Shown piece by piece: positions 1 to 47,081 of a stretch of 64,000 nt of DNA. How positions within the stretch are numbered: the stretch's first letter is position 1; each line of letters opens with the position of its first letter. The notes under the pieces are model-generated. The model did not search any database. It had not been told where the DNA came from and saw only the letters and a list, made by a program, of their open reading frames with translations. The position numbers and the translations under genes were made by a program. Source of the DNA: a virus. The stretch spans positions 10,461 through 74,460 of IMG/VR virus record IMGVR_UViG_3300013233_000167. One strand, written 5' to 3'.

Positions 1-1208
1 CGATCCATAACTTCACTGCGCTCATCGTCCGACAGCCGCACCTTACCTCGTTTGAGCACATTCATCGCTGGCACGCGGACCTTCTCGTCCACGAACCTCA
101 CCGGACCGAGGCCCGGGGTCGCGTCTAAGTAACGGTGCAGGGCGCGAGGGTATTCGAGCAAGGGCTCGACCTCCACTTCCGTGACGGTCGCGCGCACCGT
201 GGGGTTGTGTCCCCACGTACGCAGCGCGATTAGCTTTCGAGACGCGCATCCCGTCTCGTCGATCAACGGCGCGTTGTTACGGCGCGTCCGTTCGATGAAC
301 GTCACGACCTTCCGACAACGCTCCCACGTTTCGTCCGTCCACTCTCGGAGTGGAGTCGCCTTCATGCTAAGCACGTATCGCGCGGCCTTCTTGCCTTCGA
401 GCAACGGACCGCGCTTGGAACGTCGCGTCGTGGCGATCGCTTCGCGCAGTGCGGACGACCGCAGATGTGCTCGCAACTCACCGGCTCGCATGTTCACAAG
501 CCGTTGGAACTTCTCGTATAGCTGCGCACGGTCACGACTCAGATCCGCCTCGGATCCGCTGCGGTTCCGCTGCGGTAAGTGCGCGGGACGCCAGTGCTCT
601 TCAAGATCCGGTGCCTCCCAGATGTCGAACGTCTCGAACAACTCAAACGCATCGTCGCCTTCCAAAAAATCGAGCCACGCTTCGTCGATCGACTCCTGAG
701 CGCCACCACCAGCATCCGCTCCCTGCGGGTCCTCAGCGCCCGTCTGCGATCCGGGTCTCTCGTCATCGGCGGGCTCTTCGGGCGGAGGCTCTTCGCCTCC
801 CGGGGCAGCCGGAACCGTAGGCTGGTCAGGGTCGTCCACAATACCGGGAGAACGTACCTCGCCGGTCGGCGTCACGATCAGGGTCTTGACCTTGAACTGA
901 CGCTTGGTCTTCGACATCGCGGTCGGCGATTCGTCACCCACCGAGATGCGCATGTCGTAGTACGCCTGGAGGTCGTCGCGGTAGAAGGGCGGATCGTCCA
1001 TGCGATCGTCCGTCTCCGGCTCCTGCGGGGGCGGTCCCTCACCGTCCGGCGGACCGTCCTCTCCGTCTCCGGGCTTCGGCTTCTCCTCGTCGTCTGCCTT
1101 GGGCTTCTCGTCCTTGCTCTTGTCGTCCTTAGGCTTCGGCTTCTCCTCGCCGTCCTTTTCGGGCGGCCCCGTCTCCTTCTTCTTGGAGGCGGGGCTTACG
1201 CCTTTTTT
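1..1208 (-). CDS. C-terminal frame (partial, runs off window) of a probable -1 frameshift fusion protein; acidic/Pro-rich linker plus DUF3140-like domain
   Basis: Frame is open from 1208 to base 1: KKGVSPASKKKETGPPEKDGEEK...LYEKFQRLVNMRAGELRAHL...WERCRKVVTFIERT...LIALRTWGHNP. The VNM...WGH(N/D)P pattern resembles DUF3140 as recalled. First in-frame ATG is only at 1001. Absent from the ORF track because it lacks a stop inside the window. Confidence 0.75.
1166..1208 (-). promoter_or_regulatory. programmed -1 ribosomal frameshift signal
   Basis: In-frame A AAA AAG (1208-1202), 6-nt spacer GCGTAA containing the 0-frame stop, then hairpin GCCCCGCCTCC-AAGAAGAA-GGAGACGGGGC (1195-1166; 10 of 11 bp pair). 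Confidence 0.75.
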
Positions 1209-3289
1209 CCGTCGCCTTCTTCGTCAGCGGCCTCGTACGCACGACGCGACGCCGCGCCAGGGTGATCGGATTCCGTGGTGAAGTACCGCTTGAAAATCTG
1301 GAGCGCCATCTGCTCGCCGCTCAAGCGCGAAAGGACCAAGAAAAACATGAGCGAAGCGTTGCTCGGGACTTCTTGAAGGTAGCTGTGGAGCTTCGGGTAC
1401 ACGCGCGCGAGGTTACGCAGGAAGATCTGGAACGCTCTCTTCGGCTGCCGCGACACCACGTCTTGTGCGTCCGGGATCGCGGAGGCGTCGTCGGCGTTGA
1501 GGCCGAAGAACTTGGGCAGCGCCTCTCTCGGGATCGACGCGATGGCCTTCCGAGTACGCTTGAACACCGCGTCCTGCGGACCCTTGAAGTCGGGCATCTC
1601 CCTCTTGAACATCCGCAGCGCCTTGCCCGAGACCTTGAACGCGCCCTTGCGTGCGGGCTTCTCCTCTCTGTCGAATCCGAGCGTTGGCGTCTCCTTCTGC
1701 CGCTCGATCAGCTCACGCGACAACGAGCCGAAGACTCCCATGCGGAGCTGGTGCCAATGCTCGCTGCCCTGCTCCACGTCGGGGTACTGCTCGTCCACCA
1801 TCTCGCCCGCGCGCTCCAACAGGGCGTCGCGTTCGTCTCGTTCATCAAGCGCCTCCAAACGCTCGCTGTTGTTCTCCTCGATGAGCGTATCGCGCTCGTC
1901 CGTGTGCTCGGTCTCTCCCTCAATGAGCGTCGGGCGCGCGCACGGGACTCCACACTCAGCCGCGTAGTCACGCAGGTACGACTCGACCATGAGGTCGCGT
2001 TCGGCGGGAAGCTCCTCGTACATCTCGCCGAGTGCCGCGATCCCTTCCAGAACTTCATCGTACGGATGGGGCACCACCCATGCGGCATCGCGCACCGACA
2101 CGACCGTCTGGCCGTCCTCGTGCACCACGCCCCACGCGCCGTAGTCCGAGCTGACCGCTTGGGCCTCTTCGTCCACGGCGTCTTCCACTCCTTCCGACAG
2201 ACCTTCCTGACGCGCCTCCCACGAGTCACACGTCATCTCCGGTCCGACACCGTATGCGTACAGCGTGCAGTAGTAGTCATCGCCATGCTTGGCGCGGTAG
2301 TAGCGACACATCGCGCACGCACCGTGCGCAGTCTCACCATCACCGACGATGCGATAGTTGCGCGGGCGCTGCGGAGCTTTGTCGTACTCGACGTACGCCT
2401 CATCGAGCGACTCGACCTCGGGCATCCACGTCCGTTCGTCTTCCGATACCCAGGTTATGCCGTTCGGGTCTTTGACGCACGCGCCATCGTCAACGCTCAC
2501 CAACGTCTCGAAGATGTCGTCACCTGCGACCACGCAAAGCGCCGCGCGGCTGAGTCCGCCTTGTTCGCACACCGCGTCGTACTCATCGCGCGAGTCCGGT
2601 AGCAGTGACTCCATGCTCTGCTTCACGCCCGGCAACTTCACATCACCGCTATTCTCTCCGCTCGGCTTGTCGGTCTGCAATTCCGGATCCTTCTGCTCCT
2701 TCGCGGATCCGGTCGCCGTGCAGTCGAGGATCGTGAACTCGAACGTCTCTTCTCCGTTGTGCTCGCCCGCTTCGATCAGCTTCTCGAACGTCGTGAACCC
2801 CGCGATGCCCGCGCGCATCTTGCGCACCTCTTCGGAGTTGATCTTTCCCTCGAAGATAGCGAGGTACTTGTTGCCCTTCTCCAACACCGTCTCGACGAAC
2901 CGCTCGAAGAGATGTCCGCTCGACTTGATGATCCAACCTTCCATCTGCGTCGCGGCGACGCCGTTCTTAGAACGTGAGTATTCGGGACGCTTATTGATGA
3001 AGTGCGTGGCGAACGCGCGCACATCCTTACGATCAACCTCTTTCGCGTCGTCCGGGTTTCCGCTTCCATCGGTCGCGTGTGTGTGTTGTGCAGCGAACTC
3101 CAAGATCGCGCCGACGTATCCCGGGTGGTGCTTGTTCTCGTCCTCGGGGATCGCGTCGGGATCGAGCTGGAAGAGCTTCTCTTCGAGACCCTCGCGTCCA
3201 CGGAGCGCCTTGGTGGCCTTGCGGAATGACTCGCCAATCTTACGAGCGGCGAACAGGGTGCGTTGATACGTTTTCTTGAGCGAAGACAT
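1196..3289 (-). CDS. large acidic hypothetical protein with a Cys cluster (possibly virion/head associated)
   Basis: Long ORF; start MSSLKK at 3289 has SD GAGGAG; contains CAMCRYY...YCTLY...TCDSW. Virion role inferred only from position near head genes. Confidence 0.8.
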   Translation of the reverse strand: MSSLKKTYQRTLFAARKIGESFRKATKALRGREGLEEKLFQLDPDAIPEDENKHHPGYVGAILEFAAQHTHATDGSGNPDDAKEVDRKDVRAFATHFINKRPEYSRSKNGVAATQMEGWIIKSSGHLFERFVETVLEKGNKYLAIFEGKINSEEVRKMRAGIAGFTTFEKLIEAGEHNGEETFEFTILDCTATGSAKEQKDPELQTDKPSGENSGDVKLPGVKQSMESLLPDSRDEYDAVCEQGGLSRAALCVVAGDDIFETLVSVDDGACVKDPNGITWVSEDERTWMPEVESLDEAYVEYDKAPQRPRNYRIVGDGETAHGACAMCRYYRAKHGDDYYCTLYAYGVGPEMTCDSWEARQEGLSEGVEDAVDEEAQAVSSDYGAWGVVHEDGQTVVSVRDAAWVVPHPYDEVLEGIAALGEMYEELPAERDLMVESYLRDYAAECGVPCARPTLIEGETEHTDERDTLIEENNSERLEALDERDERDALLERAGEMVDEQYPDVEQGSEHWHQLRMGVFGSLSRELIERQKETPTLGFDREEKPARKGAFKVSGKALRMFKREMPDFKGPQDAVFKRTRKAIASIPREALPKFFGLNADDASAIPDAQDVVSRQPKRAFQIFLRNLARVYPKLHSYLQEVPSNASLMFFLVLSRLSGEQMALQIFKRYFTTESDHPGAASRRAYEAADEEGDGKKA

Positions 3290-4414: not shown

Positions 4415-4818
4415 GATGCAATAACCGGATCGAACGCAGACATGTGCGCAGCCGCGATGTCATACAAGCGCTCCACCACACGCTGAAAAATCAGCGCGCT
4501 GTTCCGGCCGCAGAAGTGAAGCTGATAATCGTCACCCTGCCCAACCGTAAGATCCATGCAGCCGTCCCACTTCAACGACCCATACATGAACACTTGCGCG
4601 TCGTCCAACCCGGTCGAGAAGGTCAACGGAGAGTCGGCCCCCTGTTGCGTGAACTGCACCGGACCCTTCCCGTTGACGGGACCTGCGACGATCTCCAATA
4701 TCACGTAATTCATCCAGCGCGTGCCGATGCAGCAGAACACGACGAACTCATCCTTCAAAGTCGCTTCATCCAACGGAGGAAACGCTCGCGGCATCTGGCT
4801 AGGCGTAAGATCTAACAT
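4411..4818 (-). CDS. hypothetical protein
   Basis: Start MLDLTP overlaps the thyX stop; protein-like composition. Confidence 0.65.
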   Translation of the reverse strand: MLDLTPSQMPRAFPPLDEATLKDEFVVFCCIGTRWMNYVILEIVAGPVNGKGPVQFTQQGADSPLTFSTGLDDAQVFMYGSLKWDGCMDLTVGQGDDYQLHFCGRNSALIFQRVVERLYDIAAAHMSAFDPVIAS

Positions 4819-5981
4819 CCCGCGACGACCTCCCCTATCCCATCGGTCGAGGGCACGAGATTGAATTCCGCGAAGTCCTCGACCCACTTCGTCGTCTTGA
4901 GGGCTCGAAGAACGTAGCCGTACAGCACGCGGATCTCAGCGTCGGCGTAAGGAGAGCAACGCATGGCGATCATGCGCTTCCACTGCGCCACGGACGCGGA
5001 AAAGATCAGCTCGGTGTGGAGCGCGTTGCCGAGGTAGCCGCGAGCTGCGCCGCGCGCTTGTTTGCGCGCGGTGTGCTTGTCGATGCCCTGCGCCTCGCAG
5101 GCCGCTTGCAGTTTGTATGCCGCGTCCCGATAGACCCAGCGCGCGTAACCCTCCGCCGCATGGGGTTCCTCCGAACCGTAGAAACCCACCTTACGCGGTC
5201 TCGGATCCTCTGAGCTGTCCGTACGCAAACGCTCAACGTCGTCGTTGTATCGCGTGGTCAACGGATGCTCCACCCACGGGCTGTCGCTCTCGTCCACATA
5301 CCGAGTGCTGCGTTGACTGACAGCCGTGCGAAACTTGTGACGCACTTGCTCGTGGCTCATGCCACGCGATCCTCCGAGCAACAGCGACACCCACGCCTGC
5401 TCCTGACTGACCGGGATTACATTCTCCCAGTACAGATTGGCCTGCGGTCCTACATCCAGATTCTCTGGCGCATCCACGATTTGCGGAGCGAGTATGTGGG
5501 CTTCTTTTCTAAGAATCCAAGGGAGCCACTTTTCGATGCGCGCATCGACTCCAATCTGCGGCGTCCAGTCATCCCACTCCACCACGGCACGCAAGTTACT
5601 CGTGATGTACACCTCGTCGATCTCAGGCAGATAATTCTCAATCCACACACCCGGACGATTCGCAAGAGCCACCACGAAATCCGACGAGCGAAGAAAATCA
5701 CCCTCGTCCACAACGTCGCAGTCATAGTTGAGATGTAGACAGATAGTAAAATTCGCGTGCTCCCACACGGAGCCGTGACCGACCTCCGCGATGTGCTTGT
5801 GATACGCGGCCGAGCTACGCCCCTTGCCGAGCGAGTCATAACAGACGCGCCCAGCAAGCTCGACGAGCCGCTCCAGCGTCGTGCCTTGAAGCTGGTCGTC
5901 CTTGGGGGTTCCCATGCGCGCGGGCGCGTGAGTCTCGTCGCCGTCGAAGACGACCTCTGCATAGATATTCTCGTCATACAT
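4812..5981 (-). CDS. thyX: flavin-dependent thymidylate synthase
   Basis: AGRVCYDS, GHGSVWEH, SHEQVRH...SQRSTRY, AARGYL and RCSPYADAEIR motifs. Confidence 0.92.
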   Translation of the reverse strand: MYDENIYAEVVFDGDETHAPARMGTPKDDQLQGTTLERLVELAGRVCYDSLGKGRSSAAYHKHIAEVGHGSVWEHANFTICLHLNYDCDVVDEGDFLRSSDFVVALANRPGVWIENYLPEIDEVYITSNLRAVVEWDDWTPQIGVDARIEKWLPWILRKEAHILAPQIVDAPENLDVGPQANLYWENVIPVSQEQAWVSLLLGGSRGMSHEQVRHKFRTAVSQRSTRYVDESDSPWVEHPLTTRYNDDVERLRTDSSEDPRPRKVGFYGSEEPHAAEGYARWVYRDAAYKLQAACEAQGIDKHTARKQARGAARGYLGNALHTELIFSASVAQWKRMIAMRCSPYADAEIRVLYGYVLRALKTTKWVEDFAEFNLVPSTDGIGEVVAGC

Positions 5982-9580: not shown

Positions 9581-10023
9581 TCCACGTCGCCGAGCTGGCG
9601 GGCGGCTGCCTCCCGGATCTGCCTCGTGGTCGTACGCACGAGTGACTTGCCGTTGGGGTTCGACTTGTTCCTCCGTGCCGTCTGCAAGCTCCGCTTCCCC
9701 TTCGTATTGCACGGGGCCATGATCTTCACTTGATGGCGGAAGCCACGCGACGGCACGAACACAGGGATGCTGTACGGGAAGCCATCGTTGTAGCGGTTGC
9801 ACTTCTCCGCGCGCTGCTCCAGCCACGGTCCAATCTTCCCGAGACCTGGGATCAGGACCGGCTTCCCGACGCACACCTCGTCGGCGACGTTCTCGATCCA
9901 ATACGTCAGGAACTTGAGTCCCTGTTCGCTAGAGATGCACGCCGAGCCCGCCGCGTCGTCAATCGTGCGGACCAGCGTTTCACGTTCCTCGCCGCGTTTC
10001 AAGTAAGGTAAGCTAACTTTCAT
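9577..10023 (-). CDS. HU/IHF-like DNA-binding protein
   Basis: GKPVLIPGLGKI...PVFVPSRGFR resembles the HU core and arm. Confidence 0.6.
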   Translation of the reverse strand: MKVSLPYLKRGEERETLVRTIDDAAGSACISSEQGLKFLTYWIENVADEVCVGKPVLIPGLGKIGPWLEQRAEKCNRYNDGFPYSIPVFVPSRGFRHQVKIMAPCNTKGKRSLQTARRNKSNPNGKSLVRTTTRQIREAAARQLGDVE

Positions 10024-12104
10024 CTGCGTCCGGGCAGTTCTCCAGTGGTCCGAGCCTCGTAGGGTTTGCTGCTCTCAACAGCCGCTCCCGCGAGTGCAGC
10101 TCCCGCGCTCTTCTGCTCGGTCACCTTACCTGCCCGCTCCTTGTTGATTTTTTTTCGTTCGTCGAGGATCTTCTGCGCGCGGTTGCGCGCGTCGATGAAC
10201 GCCTCGGCGATCTGTTCGTCCGTGGGCTCGTCCTGACCCTCATTGAGTTCAATCGTGATCGTGAGCGCCTCCTGTGAGGCATCGCGCAGGACCGTCACAT
10301 CCTCCCACAGCGCCTTGATTTCAGGATCTTCATCGAAGTCGTCCTCGAAGAGCTGCGTCGCACTACCCACGACCTCAACCGGCAAGAGCGACGGGTCGAT
10401 CTGCTGACGCGCACGTTCCGCTGCCTCGTCGGCCGCTAGGTCAGAGAAGTTGCGGACGTGCCCCTGCAAGCGCGGCGACGCCTCCAGGCATTGCTTCACC
10501 CACGACAGTTGCTCCTCTTCCGTGAGCAGCGTCTTGTACAGCTCTGCCGACTTGTGCTCATCGTCGAGCACCTGAGCCCGCTGCGTAGGCGTCATGGCCG
10601 CGAGACCCGCCTTGGTCTTGTCGTCCTTGGCCTCGATGGGCTTCTCTGAGGTCTGCTGCACGAGACGCAACACCATCTCCTCGGGGAGCTTGGCAAAGTT
10701 GATGAGGATATAGATGGCCCACATACGCGCATCGAGCTGCAAGTCGTTCTTGAGACCGCTCATCGTCTGCACGATCTCATAGCGCATACGCACCAACTCC
10801 AGACGCTCGAACTCGTCGAGGTAAGAAATGGGCGACATCTGAACGAGATACTCGTTGTCGCGCTTCGTCGGATCGTAGCGGTCCTTGTTCTCCGGCGACG
10901 CGAGCAACGTAAAGTGCACGTCGAGCAGTTGGCGCGCTCCGTACACAATCGCACGCTGGATGCGCTTGGCCGAGCGCGCGAAGCGAATGTCCTGTTGTTG
11001 GAGCGTCGCCTTCGCGTCGATCTCGCCCTCGAATCCGAAGTACGCCTTCGGAGCGGACGCGGCACCGAAGAAGGCGTCGCGGAAGTGTTCGAGGTCGTAG
11101 ATGTCGCCGACGTTGCCGCCGCCTTGCAGGGTCTCGATGCGCGTGCTTGAGTCGGCGCGGATCGGGTAGAAGATGTCCTCCAGCGGAGTCAGCGGGTTCC
11201 ACTGCTTCTTGTACGTCGCGCTCGCGGGGTCGATCAGCTCCGTCTTCTTGAGACGCTTGCGCCACTGGTTGACGTACCGCATGGCCTCGTGATCTTCGAG
11301 GCTCCCTACGTCCACGAGGATCACGTTGCGATCCGGGATGCGGCGCAAGCGGTACATGAGGAGCGAGTCCTCAATAAGCGTCATGGTCCGCCACTCACGA
11401 AAGAACTGCTCGCACAGCCCCGTGCCGTAGCCATCCTCCTCGTTCTTTCCGAGCAAGCGAAAATGAATGTAGTCCCACGGGAAGCTCGTGTCCGCGCCGT
11501 CCGGGTGAAGAGCCTTGCGGAACTTCGCACCCTGCTCCTTGAAGCCGACGAGGCGGCCGTACTTGTCCTCCACGCGGGTCATGTTGTGCTGACTCGCGTA
11601 GCGCCAGCCAAGCACGCCCTTCTCGGAAGCGTAGAGCAGTCGCTGGAACGAGTCGCCGTACTTACACATGCGGCGCGTGACGGCAAAGATCGTGTCCTCG
11701 ATCTTGCAGTTCTGGAGGCAGGCGTTCCCGGCCTCGATCATGTGCCGAGCCTTCGACTCGATCCAGACCCGCACTCCCCTGTCGTAGTCTGGCTGCGTGG
11801 ACTCCTCGCTGTAGACGGACAGCACGGCGGCCACGAGACCGAAGGCGTCCATCTCGTCGAAGATGTCGTACCTGCGTCGGCGATCCGAAGCCAAGCTGGA
11901 AAGCCGGTCAAGCTCCCGGAACGACGCGAATTCGTCCCCGCGCTCGTCGAACCCGAAGTCGTAGCTGACCGGCCGTGTCTGTCGTCCGAAAAGTCCGTAG
12001 AGCTTCCAGAAAGCAGGGAGACGGTGGGGCTGGGTCGGGCGCTGAGTCCTCCGGGGGGTGCCCCCCGGCTGCGTCCTTACGTTTCTGGTTTCGTTCTCCG
12101 GCAC
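10020..12104 (-). CDS. portal protein (T4 gp20-like)
   Basis: IHFRL...YG...LIEDSLLMYRLRRIPDRNVILVDVG, DIFYP, IETLQGG and QQDIRFAR motifs; adjacent to terminase. Confidence 0.9.
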   Translation of the reverse strand: MPENETRNVRTQPGGTPRRTQRPTQPHRLPAFWKLYGLFGRQTRPVSYDFGFDERGDEFASFRELDRLSSLASDRRRRYDIFDEMDAFGLVAAVLSVYSEESTQPDYDRGVRVWIESKARHMIEAGNACLQNCKIEDTIFAVTRRMCKYGDSFQRLLYASEKGVLGWRYASQHNMTRVEDKYGRLVGFKEQGAKFRKALHPDGADTSFPWDYIHFRLLGKNEEDGYGTGLCEQFFREWRTMTLIEDSLLMYRLRRIPDRNVILVDVGSLEDHEAMRYVNQWRKRLKKTELIDPASATYKKQWNPLTPLEDIFYPIRADSSTRIETLQGGGNVGDIYDLEHFRDAFFGAASAPKAYFGFEGEIDAKATLQQQDIRFARSAKRIQRAIVYGARQLLDVHFTLLASPENKDRYDPTKRDNEYLVQMSPISYLDEFERLELVRMRYEIVQTMSGLKNDLQLDARMWAIYILINFAKLPEEMVLRLVQQTSEKPIEAKDDKTKAGLAAMTPTQRAQVLDDEHKSAELYKTLLTEEEQLSWVKQCLEASPRLQGHVRNFSDLAADEAAERARQQIDPSLLPVEVVGSATQLFEDDFDEDPEIKALWEDVTVLRDASQEALTITIELNEGQDEPTDEQIAEAFIDARNRAQKILDERKKINKERAGKVTEQKSAGAALAGAAVESSKPYEARTTGELPGRR

Positions 12105-12136: not shown

Positions 12137-15100
12137 CTACACGTTGGACCGTAGGTCATCCCAGGTCTTCCTAGCCGCACCGATGGGCTCCCGATCCGTG
12201 TCGGGAGGCCGGGTGTCATTGGCGGCGCGCGCCGTCTGTCCGACCCGCGTGCGGGGCTCGAACTCCAGATCCGCCACCGACTCGTGCATGGCGCGCTCAT
12301 CGTTCAGGCAGAGCCACACGACGCCCGCCACCGCGTCACTCACGTCCTTAGAATTGTGAACGAACACCCCTGCGGTGAGCGCGAAGTTCTCGGTTCCCGG
12401 GACCGAGAGGTCATACACGTCTCTCAGGGATCCTTGACGAACCTCCACTACGCGATGGTTGCGCCGACGAAGCGCCGCCAACCGGCGTTCGACGAGACTC
12501 ACGCTGCACTGAAACCTGGCAGCGGCCTCTCGTTGCGTGCAGCCCGTCTCAGCAATATGTGCGACGATATCTTCGGCCACCACGTCGCCTCGACGCCGAG
12601 CCGCGATCGCAAACGCGACGGTCCGTTTGCCAATCTCCGACGCCACTCTTCGATGCTTGGCCGATTTGTTGTACTTCGTGATATTAGCGGTTCCGGTGCG
12701 CCGACCCAAAACCGTCGCACGCGCGTCCCTCGCCGAAGCAAACTCAGGGTCGAGATTCAGCTCCGTCATGTTCTTCCGCGAAAAGGCGCGGCCTTCGGGC
12801 GACCGCGCATAAGCAACGGCGCGCTCCCTACGCTTTGCCTCGAACACCGGATCCGCTCTCCGTGCGCACAGCTCCAGCGCGTGCATCCGCGAATGCTCTT
12901 CCGCAGGCATCAAGCACAGCGCACGAGGATCATTGTTCGGCTTCCCCTTCTCGTGGTGCATCACGCCATCTCCGAACTGATTGCCCGTATATCGACCCGG
13001 GTACTTCCACCTACCGACCATCCGATGCGTGAAGTGCCACTTCTCCGAAGCAGGACACCAATACAATTCATACCCACGCATCCCATCACGATTCGACACC
13101 TTGCGATACAAAGGCATCAACGAATCTTCGGGTCGCAAGTCACCAGCTTCCCTATACGTTCCGTCCCGCAGCATCCAGCGGTGATCGGGTGTGCAGCACA
13201 CTTCCTGTCCGTTGTCGAGAACCACGGTCACGGTCCGAGCACGACGACACGTCAAACGCGGACGCACGGCACGACCCGCCGAGACCTTCCCTTTCGCCAT
13301 CGTGTACACGTAGATATCCTCGTGCGCGTAATCGCGCGCGAGTTCCCGAAGCGTAACTTCGCATCCGTTCAACAACGACACCTTCGTATCACCGTCAAAA
13401 CAGCCCTTTCCTCCCTGCGTGGACTTCTGCGGGTGGTCCACCTTGTTCTTGCCCTTGAGATTGATAATGCGCTTCAAATCCAGCACTTCGTCGATGTAGG
13501 GCTTGTACTCGTACATTGAGATCCGGCGATCGAAGTGCGCGCTCCGAAGCGACAGGTAGGCGTCCTCCTTGCGGTCAACGGACTGGTGCCCCGCGTCTAT
13601 GTGGTGCTTCTTGAGGATCTGAATCGAGTCGCTCGACTGAAACTGGTCGTACGTGACCTTGGCGATCGAGAAGATGCGGTTGAGAAACAAGATGAATGCC
13701 CGCACCTTCGAGAGATCGACCTCGCCTCCGTTGGGAGCCCTGACCCGCAGCATGAGGTCGATGATGATAAATGGGTTCGAGACGGTCGAGACCAACCCCT
13801 CGGCGTCGATCCTCTCCACCTTCACCGATCCGGCGACGTGCCCCATAGCGATCCCGAGCGCGTCGTCCGTGAGCCCGATATCAACATGAATGAAACGCGG
13901 GCACTTCGGATTCAGGCGCGGGACGTGCTTCGACCCCACCACGCGCACGACGCGCTTGGCGATGAAGCTCTCTTCGATCAGCGAGTCGTCGTCGATGTCG
14001 CAGATGATCTCGGTACGCGAGAACGGATGCCGCATATTCTCCGACACAGCCTCGTGTACTGACGCTCGGTCTCGAATCAGCGGCGAGACGTTGAACGTGG
14101 CGACGCCCGCCATGTCGCGCAGAGCTTGGTCCAGGTCTTCGTCGAACGACTTCCGCAGCTCCAACGGCACGTCGATGACTCGTGCGCCCTTACGAGGCTC
14201 CTCGCCGGGTTCCAGAATCCGCGACGAGGATCGACGATCACCAACCTCGACGTTGAAGCCCGGAAACGTATAGCGGCTCTTCGGCTTACATTCCCACAGC
14301 GCGTAGTCCGAGACGAACGTATGCTGCGCGTGGTCACCGCCCATCACCGTCCGCAAGTGCTCTTCCAGGAACGAAGTCTGCGCGTTGCGCGAGCTGATGA
14401 GAAACAGCATCCCGGGAAGCACCCCGCCGGGTCGGCCAAAGCGCGACTGGAGGCGTGTGTACGTCGCGTTGTAGAGATCGTACGCCTGCCCGATCGTCTT
14501 GCCCGTCTCCTTGTCCTCCTTCTCCATCATAAAGTTCGCCTCGTCCATGAGGAAGGCGAACAGGTCGAGACCGAGAGCGTGTCCCGCGCGAGAACCAGCC
14601 ATGACCTGAATCTTCTTGCGAGCAACCGGCTCGAAGTCGATCGGCGCATCTTTCCTCGGATCGCGCGGACAGTGTTCGGAGAAGTAATCGCTGTTGTCGA
14701 TGTAGCCACGCAGTTTGTAGAAGCCAGCGCCCGTCGCTTGCGTGAGCGTCTTCGAGTAGACACCGAACACGATCTTCTCGTCGGGCAGCAACCCGTAGTA
14801 CCTAGAAGCGTCGCGCAAGCACGACAGCACGCAGAGCTTGTAGCCCATCGCCACGTCCGACACCGTGGTCTTGCCAGTTCCGATTGCACCTGTGAGCACC
14901 CACTCGAAGACGGGCGATCCAGGACGGAAGACCTCGTACAGATCTTCCTTCCAACGTGGGTGCAGGAACGACGCGGCACGGCCGAAGTAGTAATCGTCCT
15001 CGATGAACTCCTCGATCGTTGGTGGCTGTCGCAGGTAGTCCACCTCCCACAACAGGCTGTGCAACGACGTGTCCGCCTGACCGTCCACAATCGCTTCCGC

Positions 15101-15286
15101 GAGCCACTCCACTACGAGCGCGCGTTCAGGTTTGGACAGCCCGTTGAACAGATCGCGGTCTCCGTACAACGTCTCCTCGGCAACGCGGTTGAAAAGCTGT
15201 ACGTGCTCGTCGCGCAGCACGCGGGTCGCTTGAATAGAGCCCTTTCCTGCGCGGATGACCTTCGGCTTGGGTCTACGATGCACCAC
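12137..15286 (-). CDS. terL: terminase large subunit (intein-containing)
   Basis: Walker A GAIGTGKT, Walker B FLMDE; nuclease motifs IHVDIG, YDQFQS, DHP...SKDVSDA. Confidence 0.9.
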   Translation of the reverse strand: MVHRRPKPKVIRAGKGSIQATRVLRDEHVQLFNRVAEETLYGDRDLFNGLSKPERALVVEWLAEAIVDGQADTSLHSLLWEVDYLRQPPTIEEFIEDDYYFGRAASFLHPRWKEDLYEVFRPGSPVFEWVLTGAIGTGKTTVSDVAMGYKLCVLSCLRDASRYYGLLPDEKIVFGVYSKTLTQATGAGFYKLRGYIDNSDYFSEHCPRDPRKDAPIDFEPVARKKIQVMAGSRAGHALGLDLFAFLMDEANFMMEKEDKETGKTIGQAYDLYNATYTRLQSRFGRPGGVLPGMLFLISSRNAQTSFLEEHLRTVMGGDHAQHTFVSDYALWECKPKSRYTFPGFNVEVGDRRSSSRILEPGEEPRKGARVIDVPLELRKSFDEDLDQALRDMAGVATFNVSPLIRDRASVHEAVSENMRHPFSRTEIICDIDDDSLIEESFIAKRVVRVVGSKHVPRLNPKCPRFIHVDIGLTDDALGIAMGHVAGSVKVERIDAEGLVSTVSNPFIIIDLMLRVRAPNGGEVDLSKVRAFILFLNRIFSIAKVTYDQFQSSDSIQILKKHHIDAGHQSVDRKEDAYLSLRSAHFDRRISMYEYKPYIDEVLDLKRIINLKGKNKVDHPQKSTQGGKGCFDGDTKVSLLNGCEVTLRELARDYAHEDIYVYTMAKGKVSAGRAVRPRLTCRRARTVTVVLDNGQEVCCTPDHRWMLRDGTYREAGDLRPEDSLMPLYRKVSNRDGMRGYELYWCPASEKWHFTHRMVGRWKYPGRYTGNQFGDGVMHHEKGKPNNDPRALCLMPAEEHSRMHALELCARRADPVFEAKRRERAVAYARSPEGRAFSRKNMTELNLDPEFASARDARATVLGRRTGTANITKYNKSAKHRRVASEIGKRTVAFAIAARRRGDVVAEDIVAHIAETGCTQREAAARFQCSVSLVERRLAALRRRNHRVVEVRQGSLRDVYDLSVPGTENFALTAGVFVHNSKDVSDAVAGVVWLCLNDERAMHESVADLEFEPRTRVGQTARAANDTRPPDTDREPIGAARKTWDDLRSNV
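12353..13402 (-). mobile_element. intein with HNH-type homing endonuclease in terminase
   Basis: GGKG|CFDGDTKV...CTPDHRW...FALTAGVFVHN|SKD; internal HRMV...HHEKGKPNNDP; 350 aa. Confidence 0.92.
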
Positions 15287-27218: not shown

Positions 27219-29276
27219 TCAACTGTCGTCCTCATCCTCCAGGTCCGCCGACACGCCTTTCTTGTCGAGCAGGTACTTCTCCACACCCCCGGCCAACGAC
27301 ACCGCCTTGAGGGCAGCGTTCGCGCCGGAGCAGAAGCCCGGGTCACCCATGCGGTCGAACCAGTCGCCCCGCTTGAAGGCCCCGTCGGACCACGGGACGA
27401 GGATTCTCCCCGGTCCCTTGGCCTTCTTGATGATCCCGGCTTCGGTCAGCAGGTGTTGAGCGGTCAGCTCCACGCTCGGCCCGTGCGTGAAGTCCAGCAC
27501 CCACTCCGTCCGCCGGTGAGGCGGCGCGAGTCGGCACTTGTCCGTGATGGTGGAGATCTTGTAGCCGGTGGGCGCGATGCCCTTCGCACGCTTCGCGGGC
27601 AGCCTGCCGATCACCCGATTCGCCACCCGCTGAGACGCCGCGAACTTCACGGCCCGGCCTCCAGTCGTGTCGGTCTGCGGGCCACCCCAGCTAGAGAAGC
27701 CTCCGATCTTCGAGCGGTTCTGGTTGATCCACATGACGTGGGCGCGGACCTTGGCGATCTCCCGAAACATCTTGCGGCAGCCCTTCGACATGATTCGCGC
27801 GTGGAGGCCAACGAACGAGTCTGTCATCTTCCCCTCCAACTCGTCCTTCGGCACAGCCGCCGCGATCGAGTCCCACACGATAAGCGTCGGTGCGCCGGGG
27901 TCGCGGGTCTTGAGGTCGTTTAGGATCGCCCACGTCGCCTCCCAGCCCTCTTCCGCGTGCGCGGGCGCGAGGTAGATGAGACGCTCCGGGTCGATGCCGA
28001 CGTTAGCCATCTTCGCAGCGTCGAGCGCGACCTCGTAGTCGAGAAGCACCGGGATACCGCCCGTCCGCTGACACTGACGAATCGCCATGTGCGCAAGCGC
28101 CGACTTGCCGCAGTTGTGGATCACAAGACCCTCAGCGATGTAGTTGCGGTACGGGTCCTCCATCTTGATGTCGTAGGTAGGCTTGATACCGACCGGAGTG
28201 ATCGACACCACGCGGTCCTCCACGACCACGTACCTAAGATTGCTGTCAGTCTCTAACGCATGTTCGCGGTTGTGCGCATCACCATCCACGACGACGAGGT
28301 TGTCTCTGTCGTCGTTCGACCAGTCCTCGTCGATATGGTGGACGTGCTGATCGGGGCGTAGGAACTTCATGTCGAAGAAGTCATCCGCGTCGAGACGGGC
28401 CTTGTACTCGTCGAGCGTCAGGCCGTTCATCTCGGCCTCGATGATGGCGCGAGACATCGACGGCTGTGCAGCCCTCGCTCTCGCGTGGTTCGGATGAAAT
28501 CTGACCGACAAATGCTTTCGGAAGTTTGATCTGGAAGCGGGGTCGTCGGACTGCCAATGCGTCTGGTTGTGCAAGTACAGCACGTCACCAACCGACACCT
28601 CCTCCAACGAACGGTAGCGACCCCCTACGTACATCTTGTGATCGAGCGTCGCTGTTAGCTGCGCACCTGACTCGGTAACGACTTCCAAGCACTCGCGCTC
28701 TCCGGTCTTCACCACGTCAATGATCCGCGATTGCACGATGCGATGATCGTCGTTCATCGCAGGCGCGTGGAACGTCGCACCTTCGGGTGCAAAGCGATTC
28801 TTGCCCTTGCCCGGCACCGCGATTCGATGGAAGCGTTCGTACAGACGCTCGATCGTTCCGCCCTTGCAGTTGATGAGTTTCCCGTCCGCTTGACGCACCT
28901 GATAGCCGATGAACGTCTCGGCCCAAGAGCATCCTTCGTCTCCGTACACCTCACTCGCACGCCCAACTGCCCAGCCGCCACCAAGCACGCGGTCAAGATC
29001 TGGGAAGCCTGACGGGATCCACTCCTTCACTTCGGAGAGCGAGTCTGCTTGTCCCAACACCGTCACCACGCTGTCGGTCTTCGTGCCGAGACGCTTCTTG
29101 ATGGCCTTGACCATCGAGTCGGTATCGGACGGCTTCGCCTTGCGCGAGGTCTTCTTCTTCTTACTCGCGGCTGCGCCGGACTTTGCGGGCGACCTTCTTG
29201 CGTCCTTTTTTCTTGACGGTCTTTTTGCGGCCGTCTTTGCGGCGTGGGAAGTCTTCGCTTTGTCCTTGAGGCCCAT
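27219..29276 (-). CDS. recA: RecA/UvsX recombinase (intein-containing)
   Basis: IPSGFPDLD..LGGG, GDEG|CGKS, IVWDSIAA, INQ.R and TTGGRAVKF motifs. Confidence 0.92.
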   Translation of the reverse strand: MGLKDKAKTSHAAKTAAKRPSRKKDARRSPAKSGAAASKKKKTSRKAKPSDTDSMVKAIKKRLGTKTDSVVTVLGQADSLSEVKEWIPSGFPDLDRVLGGGWAVGRASEVYGDEGCSWAETFIGYQVRQADGKLINCKGGTIERLYERFHRIAVPGKGKNRFAPEGATFHAPAMNDDHRIVQSRIIDVVKTGERECLEVVTESGAQLTATLDHKMYVGGRYRSLEEVSVGDVLYLHNQTHWQSDDPASRSNFRKHLSVRFHPNHARARAAQPSMSRAIIEAEMNGLTLDEYKARLDADDFFDMKFLRPDQHVHHIDEDWSNDDRDNLVVVDGDAHNREHALETDSNLRYVVVEDRVVSITPVGIKPTYDIKMEDPYRNYIAEGLVIHNCGKSALAHMAIRQCQRTGGIPVLLDYEVALDAAKMANVGIDPERLIYLAPAHAEEGWEATWAILNDLKTRDPGAPTLIVWDSIAAAVPKDELEGKMTDSFVGLHARIMSKGCRKMFREIAKVRAHVMWINQNRSKIGGFSSWGGPQTDTTGGRAVKFAASQRVANRVIGRLPAKRAKGIAPTGYKISTITDKCRLAPPHRRTEWVLDFTHGPSVELTAQHLLTEAGIIKKAKGPGRILVPWSDGAFKRGDWFDRMGDPGFCSGANAALKAVSLAGGVEKYLLDKKGVSADLEDEDDS
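28113..28931 (-). mobile_element. intein with HNH-type endonuclease in the RecA P-loop
   Basis: GDEG|CSWAET...ATLDHK...HVHHIDEDWSND.RDNL...HNREH...GLVIHN|CGKS; 273 aa. Confidence 0.9.
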
Positions 29277-46766: not shown

Positions 46767-47081
46767 AGTTTGCACCACGCTCACAGAGCTTCGATGACGA
46801 GAAAAGGTTCCTCTACGAAGAGGAGCCGGACACGCTCAACTGTACCACCAGGCTCAGAGCCAGCAACCCATTTTGCAATTTCCATGTTTTGAGTCCCTCG
46901 ACAACGCCCGCCAGGACACTTTTCCAAGAAAAAAGCGGCCTCCGGAGAACACTCCCCAAAGGCCGCTCGTCACCTGCATCACCTTTCAGATGACGCCTTC
47001 CGAACGCATTTCCCAAGTTCAAGTGCGGTCGCTTCATCCCGCACCAACCGCGTTCGGTCGGTCAATGTTCAGGGTCTAGTG

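Follow-up and report, generated by a model that had tools for sequence, protein, structure and literature searches.

A 697-residue phage protein and its probable extension by a programmed −1 ribosomal frameshift of the dnaX/IS3 type

Does a large gene of an uncultured phage end at its own stop codon, or do some ribosomes carry it on into an open reading frame (ORF) that overlaps its end in the −1 frame? The question is raised by the 3′-end of a gene for 697 amino acids (aa) on the minus strand of a stretch of 64,000 nucleotides (nt), hereafter the window, which covers bases 10461–74460 of the 74,460-base IMG/VR virus record IMGVR_UViG_3300013233_000167 (completeness estimate ∼53%; phage genome roughly 140 kb). 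We consider this to be very probably a programmed −1 ribosomal frameshift site of the kind known from bacterial dnaX and IS3, which is by far the best reading of the comparative sequence evidence. The signal is taken to be real because relatives of the gene either retain a signal of the same kind or fuse both halves in one frame. Actual slippage, its efficiency and the importance of the ratio of short to long product are what we propose for the window gene. The mechanism is ordinary; the phage gene family is new, and so are its gene context and the evolutionary series in which the two halves are fused, separated by A AAA AAG or separated by A AAC CCT.

The zero-frame gene, whose product we call P0001, starts behind a good Shine-Dalgarno (SD) sequence, AGGAG, at 5-nt spacing, and its final codons are GGA (1210–1208) AAA AAG GCG TAA. 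The elements around its end are the following.

1196..3289, minus strand: zero-frame gene P0001, 697 aa, from ATG 3289 to TAA 1198..1196.
1224..1226, minus strand: TGA closing the −1 frame, five codons before the two Lys codons and ending 15 nt before the heptamer.
1202..1208, minus strand: slippery heptamer A AAA AAG in X XXY YYZ phase (codons GGA AAA AAG).
1196..1201, minus strand: 6-nt spacer GCGUAA, made of one sense codon, GCG, and the zero-frame stop TAA.
1166..1195, minus strand: predicted 3′ stimulatory hairpin with an 11-position stem, one C-A mismatch and an 8-nt loop.

The predicted hairpin consists of a 5′ arm GCCCCGCCUCC (1195..1185), a loop AAGAAGAA (1184..1177) and a 3′ arm GGAGACGGGGC (1176..1166), with ten pairs besides the C-A mismatch, and its stem is lengthened below by a GGCG (1202–1199)/CGCC (1165–1162) helix. 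It begins 6 nt past the heptamer, inside the 5–9 nt range of bacterial −1 signals; the predicted fold has −25.9 kcal/mol with a z-score of −3.4 and was equalled by none of 200 shuffles. As no U-tract follows, the hairpin is not a terminator. The search of Rfam gave no family match, and none to a known frameshift element. A sequence-only reading of the stretch had described the in-frame heptamer at the end of the gene, the hairpin of 11 positions with one mismatch at a distance of 6 nt and the TGA five codons upstream of the slip site, and we found each of them where it had been placed.

A heptamer of this kind is unremarkable by itself, because AAAAAAG occurs seven times in the window with 2.3 occurrences expected. 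What is remarkable is that it stands 3 nt before a stop codon, with a hairpin 6 nt downstream, inside the overlap of two frames; with the −1-frame TGA lying 15 nt upstream, a productive shift is confined to these 28 nt. The placement is not due to chance, since it is conserved in relatives. The other six copies of AAAAAAG are at 29205, 30886, 30922 and 49819 on the minus strand and at 46929 and 50805 on the plus strand; judged by position, those on coding strands sit near the starts of ORFs and not near their ends. A scan of IMG/VR with the pattern AAAAAAG-N3-TRA-GCCCCG returned 24 loci, and all but a known relative and one other are short ORFs that look like chance matches. That other locus (L044:6121-6139, IMGVR_UViG_3300045988_117362) is an unrelated open frame of 933 codons ending AAA AAG CGG TGA GCCCCG..., with a −1 frame open for 928 further codons through a Pro-rich linker and with a GTG overlapping the stop; it could be a second case of frameshifting or one of ordinary GTGA start-stop coupling.

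Beyond the slip site the −1 frame is divided as follows; the protein of this ORF is called P0003.

1002..1202, minus strand: −1-frame linker of 67 codons, without ATG, GTG or TTG and with a high content of Lys, Glu, Asp and Pro.
1..1001, minus strand: remainder of the −1 ORF, from the conserved MDDPPFYRDD motif onward.

The sequence-only reading had followed this frame to the window edge, over about 68 codons devoid of a start, and had estimated the joined protein at more than 1,090 aa. The frame is open for 457 codons and ends 171 nt past the edge (L001:1329); its first ATG, GTG or TTG is codon 68, the ATG at 1001. The transframe product would thus have 696 + 457 = 1,153 aa beside a short form of the 697 aa already estimated, and the junction peptide given in that reading, EGDGKKGVSPASK, is correct (in another form, GDGKKGVSPASK). 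The linker is predicted to be disordered (AlphaFold pLDDT, predicted local distance difference test, about 40), while the parts downstream of it are modelled as folded.

Among 5.8 billion proteins searched we found nine homologues of P0001 with 46–85% identity and lengths of 545–763 aa; no form of ∼1,150 aa was found among these close relatives. All ten aligned sequences, P0001 and the nine homologues from independent assemblies, end in (G/A)-K-K-X-stop, with K695 and K696 invariant, although the 20–60 residues ahead of the KK vary in length and sequence and two homologues lack the final ∼150 residues while keeping the ending. For most of the family the slip site was inferred from the C-terminal peptide (P0004–P0008, P0010–P0012, P0080–P0085). 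At the DNA level we could compare three lineages: the window, a 156-kb IMG/VR contig (L003; 53% aa identity) and two JGI contigs (L005 and L006; 68%). All three read (GGA or GCA) AAA AAG NNN TAA GCCCCG..., with the heptamer identical and in the same phase in L003, L005 and L006 and with the hairpin at the same position. In L003 the hairpin is a perfect 11-bp stem, the C-A mismatch being replaced by an A-U pair with both partners changed (z −4.5), and in L005 it has a loop 3 nt longer (z −2.8). Across the loci the −1 frame is closed 15–21 nt upstream of the heptamer, which leaves a frame overlap of 28–34 nt. Positions 1162–1211, which span hairpin and heptamer, are matched with few changes by contigs of additional relatives, taken from three studies of sediment or marine samples; the stretches that replace the flanks there differ by 18 and 123 nt in length, in each case a multiple of 3. 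The window phage itself was not found in sequencing runs, where only relatives appeared (small shares, 0.04–0.05) and no RNA run was listed, and among GenBank phages and 185,579 prokaryote genomes we found no relative.

Purine-rich elements end 6–7 nt before the heptamer, GAAGG in the window, GGAGGGGG in L003 and AGAGGG in L005. They might work like the SD-like stimulator of dnaX; still, the spacing differs and the same bases also encode the acidic/Gly tail of the protein.

This conservation bears on the simplest objection, that a fused gene appears split in the record through an error of sequencing or assembly (an indel, with A7 as the true run) or that a recent frameshift inactivated what is now a pseudogene. 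Homopolymer indels are common errors, and distant relatives are indeed fused. However, the ten independent assemblies at 46–85% identity all end in KK-X-stop, the A6 run, the stop and the hairpin are common to three DNA lineages, and a simple indel would make neither a conserved hairpin nor a −1-frame stop 15–21 nt upstream. We regard artefact or decay as extremely improbable. Two checks that the sequence-only reading had named thereby come out in its favour: homologous genomes (L003 and L005/L006) keep heptamer, stop and hairpin, and the ten homologous ends exclude the assembly indel.

Four lines of evidence indicate that the stretch between the stop and ATG 1001 is translated. G+C content by codon position is 0.73/0.45/0.85 in the linker and 0.66/0.42/0.80 in the flanking genes. 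Its length is 67, 61, 55 and 49 codons over four loci, and at these loci stop codons interrupt both other frames, each at least once, but never the −1 frame. Between L005 (2590-2625) and the near-identical L006 the linker differs by an 18-nt in-frame tandem duplication, GATGGCGAGGAGAAGCCG, and therefore it grows and shrinks by whole codons. Finally, all homologues with a gene call extending that far conserve (Q)EPETDDR directly ahead of the Met, with no preceding start codon. Two homologous gene calls begin VSPGS..., in the −1 frame at the stop itself, where a TGA stop creates a GTG.

These observations can be set against the view that the locus holds two ordinary genes, the first stopping at TAA and the second starting at ATG 1001 after an untranslated spacer of 195 nt, with the hairpin serving mRNA stability or processing. 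That ATG is invariant in 19 close homologues, it is where gene callers place the start of the protein, and weak SD-like sequences, GGAG and GGA, precede it. An untranslated spacer would not be expected to have the coding periodicity, the single open frame and the purely in-frame indels just described, nor an EPETDDR conserved as protein and lying within the ORF of fused relatives. Moreover, the KK-X-stop ending is invariant, the SD spacing at ATG 1001 is poor beside that of other genes of the phage, and on the coding (minus) strand of the window no promoter-like or terminator-like site was found. Two separately expressed genes are, in our judgement, quite improbable.

A variant of the frameshift explanation is that both routes are used: the shift would give the 1,153-aa fusion and initiation at ATG 1001 a free protein of 390 aa, so that the locus would have three products. 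The pattern of the Met is suggestive here: it is invariant in the A AAA AAG clade and is T, K, S or I where the protein is fused or where the site is A AAC CCT; a weak SD also precedes it. Yet many fused proteins have Met at this position, where a start is impossible, and the 12-nt SD spacing is unfavourable. We treat this combination as possible but rather doubtful.

Several points weigh against a frameshift at this locus, or against its being the only route to the downstream part, and should be read together. None of the 19 homologues in the frameshift clade departs from the Met at 1001, in the window it is preceded by GGAG at 12 nt and GGA at 7 nt, and the downstream part may also be made alone from it, although Met is common there in fused relatives too. 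The A6 run in the window contig is supported through conservation, and the covariation in the hairpin is based on three distinct sequences. A host tRNA-Lys(CUU), if present, would make AAG less slippery; no tRNA genes were found within the window.

How the two halves are related became clear from distant members of the family. In two IMG/VR contigs (L009 and L010) a single ORF of about 975 aa matches P0001 over its first 430 residues (E 2e-41) and P0003, from residue 60–66 to the end, over the rest. In L009 thyX lies directly upstream, as in the window, and we therefore take this ORF as the positional orthologue. With the P0001 profile, HMMER run over all of 1.84 billion representatives gave 188 family members; 17 of the 146 tested carry the N-part of P0001 and the whole P0003-like part in one ORF (820–1,413 aa), and nine more carry at least the small DDPxFYRDD domain in the same ORF. 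The fused proteins have a charged linker, rich in proline, ahead of ...TDR-x-(D/E)xPxFYRDD, where x stands for M, T, K or S. The common architecture of the family is therefore a single polypeptide, which the clade of the window reaches only by a change of frame. The sequence-only reading had counted simply fused homologues against a frameshift. Such homologues do exist among distant relatives; still, the close relatives all keep the signal, and the fused ones support frameshifting because they show that the two halves belong in one polypeptide.

A second kind of slip site occurs in a sister clade, where five N-module proteins end in N-P-X-stop. In one contig of this clade (L045:5635-5690, IMGVR_UViG_3300001199_000115) the gene ends CCA AAC CCT CGG TAG, with the phased heptamer A AAC CCT, and the stop is followed by a hairpin, GGCCCUCC...GGAGGGCC, with an 8-bp GC stem (−29.9 kcal/mol, z −2.7). 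For 388 codons the −1 frame contains no stop, and its translation has 43% identity with P0003 (E 5e-98). With this contig, the order heptamer, one codon, stop is found in all five DNA loci. P0080, P0081, P0083 and P0085 also end in N-P-X-stop and probably share the site. In L045 the position of the Met is ATC (Ile), and the first ATG, GTG or TTG lies 15 residues inside the conserved domain; by its sequence, only a frameshift would translate the whole domain there. This is a further difficulty for two ordinary genes, as the slip site and the hairpin are kept where the Met is replaced and there is no other start.

The same site helps to separate ribosomal from transcriptional slippage, in which RNA polymerase would add one A in the A6 run and make an mRNA for the same fusion protein; the added A yields the same amino acid sequence as a −1 ribosomal shift. 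Slippage on homopolymers is known in bacteria (PMC5009743, PMC4256274). However, the hairpin conserved 6 nt downstream and the exact phasing as X XXY YYZ are typical of shifts made by the ribosome, and the A AAC CCT of the sister clade has no long homopolymer. An A6 run is short for efficient slippage, the known cases having runs of about 9 or more. The finding of two heptamers in one layout is therefore a strong argument for selection on recoding and against slippage by the polymerase on an A-run, which we hold to be very improbable.

The course of events that we propose for a programmed −1 frameshift at this locus is as follows. Most ribosomes would read GGA AAA AAG GCG and stop at TAA, releasing the 697-aa protein. 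A fraction would pause while AAA occupies the P site and AAG the A site, with the GC-rich hairpin, 6 nt downstream, at the mRNA entrance; the two Lys-tRNAs would then slip back by one base onto A AAA AA, making GGC the next codon. The shifted ribosomes would add the 67-residue disordered linker and a 390-residue region, and the resulting long form of 1,153 aa would restore the architecture that distant relatives encode directly in a single ORF. In E. coli A_AAA_AAG is the most shift-prone heptamer among those tested and the natural site of dnaX, and about half of bacteria decode AAA and AAG by one tRNA-Lys (PMC5009743). By analogy, a fixed ratio of short to long form is plausible; the frameshift would set the share of copies that bear the C-terminal DUF3140 and docking-like modules.

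The modules that the two forms would carry, all read on the minus strand, are these.

P0001 residues 1–300: N-module, from a profile search.
Window 2198–2383, P0001 residues 303–364: HiPIP-like Cys4 motif C-x2-C...C...C-x2-W, with weak profile and structure matches.
Window 1214–1717, P0001 residues 525–692: helical C-module without a Pfam family, from a profile search.
P0003 residues 68–123: small conserved domain.
Window 267–512, P0003 residues 231–312: DUF3140 (PF11338), from Pfam.
Window 1–71 and beyond the edge (L001:1332-1571): C-terminal module of 80 aa, starting at window position 71.

An AlphaFold2 (AF2) model of P0001 has pLDDT 83 and five folded parts, including a middle domain between the Cys4 motif and the C-module. 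Pfam gave no match to P0001 and PHROGs nothing informative; ESM Atlas gave no usable match, sequence profiles of the PDB only matches with E ≥ 0.25, and the searches of both AF2 models with Foldseek (PDB and BFVD) and with VIA (wide searches) nothing above common helical arrangements, the best BFVD row being a haloarchaeal virus prohead protease (E 0.013 over 114 columns). A Pfam search of 50 family members and nine giant relatives found only AAA, S-adenosylmethionine (SAM) lyase and helix-turn-helix (HTH) domains, in two proteins.

Proteins of up to 3,246 aa begin with the N-module, and in two of them the AAA, SAM lyase and HTH domains are added. These two giants, P0160 (2,578 aa) and P0180 (2,833 aa), combine the N-module with an AAA ATPase and the SAM lyase, and one of them has the HTH; SAM lyase has known anti-restriction activity, and its presence hints at a counter-defence role of the family. 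In the Cys4 motif C325, C328, C341, C354 and W357 are invariant in all ten sequences. Its matches are all weak, the profile of HiPIP 1hlq having E 0.3 and the VIA match to Rhodothermus HiPIP 3h31_A having Z 5.0 and a root-mean-square deviation of 2.9 over 57 residues; it may represent an iron-sulfur site of a phage protein. The fused relative in L009 lacks the motif. The C-module is found in about 100 representative proteins of 130–2,118 aa, at N-terminal, internal or C-terminal positions; neither the short homologues P0011 and P0012 nor the fused relatives have it.

In the extension, the match to DUF3140 reaches 29.1–29.3 bits with a gathering cut-off of 25 (E 1e-6); a literature search on DUF3140 found nothing. 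The 80-aa module, …PAVWK…W(F/Y)VTNTHRA…IK(Q/S)TA-stop, belongs to no Pfam family and always forms the extreme C-terminus (loci L011–L021). It occurs on some 45 other phage proteins, with Zeta toxin/AAA_33 kinase, RyR, ParB_N, HD and DnaJ among the domains at their heads.

The gene stands within a late-looking string of genes, downstream of thyX, a T4-like portal gene and an intein-bearing terminase gene; its neighbours are thyX upstream and small ORFs, and the portal and terminase genes lie 7–11 kb upstream. The ThyX gene is at 4812–5981. The T4-type portal gene (10020–12104, minus strand; Portal_T4 E 5e-42) follows the gene of the large terminase (12137–15286, minus strand), which carries the intein (Intein_splicing E 3.5e-15, with an HNH PHROG match).

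Tentatively, and with somewhat less than even confidence, we suggest that the frameshift has evolved as a means of dosage control in a family of modular phage proteins, possibly delivered by the virion, and that an ancestral single ORF was split at least twice or its slip site was turned over. If so, a set minority of copies would carry DUF3140 and the docking-like module of 80 aa, phages would have a recurrent class of recoding apart from the cases of tail chaperones, capsids and insertion sequences (IS), and the function of a C-terminal module that is widespread but unannotated would become easier to approach. In any event the annotation is corrected, as public gene calls split the family into two ‘hypothetical proteins’. 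Three unannotated and widely shuffled modules, the N-module, the C-module and the 80-aa module, would be joined in one polypeptide, which narrows functional hypotheses, and the series of fused, A AAA AAG and A AAC CCT forms lets one ask why a phage swaps fusion for a frameshift.

In its modular architecture and domain swapping the family resembles a class of phage proteins termed polyvalent (Iyer et al. 2017, PMC5512222), believed to be packaged together with the DNA and delivered along with it; the giant relatives with AAA and SAM lyase would fit this class as well. P0001 might possibly be of this virion-carried type. Unlike them, P0001 and P0003 were found to have no Pfam polyvalent-protein, MuF or portal domain, and the word ‘frameshift’ is absent from the paper on polyvalent proteins (PMC5512222).

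The closest mechanistic likeness is to dnaX of E. coli, with its gamma and tau products: both have A AAA AAG as heptamer, with a stem-loop a few nt beyond it, and two products would come from one gene, as they do in dnaX (PMC5009743). However, the shifted frame of dnaX stops almost at once and gives the shorter product, whereas the shift in the window gene would add 457 residues. The SD-like stimulator of dnaX at 10 nt is also not clearly present in the window, where there is only the purine-rich element (GAAGG/GGAGG/AGAGG among the loci) 6–7 nt upstream. Elements of the IS3 family, such as IS911 and IS150, resemble the locus in their OrfA-OrfAB arrangement: A AAA AAG near the end of the upstream ORF, a zero-frame stop just after it, a 3′ structure and a transframe fusion that carries the downstream domains. 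The window gene is not a transposase and has no IS features, and its extension is a structural or accessory region of a phage protein.

In the SEA-PHAGES set 2,397 of 2,476 annotated phage frameshifts are in tail assembly chaperones (PMC10885494), and a conserved, canonical −1 site in a modular protein of 700 aa from large uncultured phages therefore widens the list of recoded phage genes. With lambda G/GT and other tail chaperones the locus would share a conserved phage −1 shift giving a short major and a C-terminally extended minor product; the ratio matters in lambda, being 30:1 (PMC5009743). The differences are plain: the window gene has 697 aa where the chaperones have about 140, its place is not between the genes for tail tube and tape measure, and P0001 has no PHROG or Pfam match to a chaperone. 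The sequence-only reading had already set the gene apart from tail chaperones, and its length and its position downstream of thyX, about 7 kb from the portal gene, agree.

The extensions of T7 10B and of the capsid protein of phage A2 are short, a few tens of residues. Like gene 10A/10B of T7 and the capsid gene of Lactobacillus phage A2, the window gene would combine a phage −1 shift near the end of a large late gene with an extended isoform (PMC5009743); here, by contrast, the extension would have 457 residues and three folded modules, which in relatives are directly fused.

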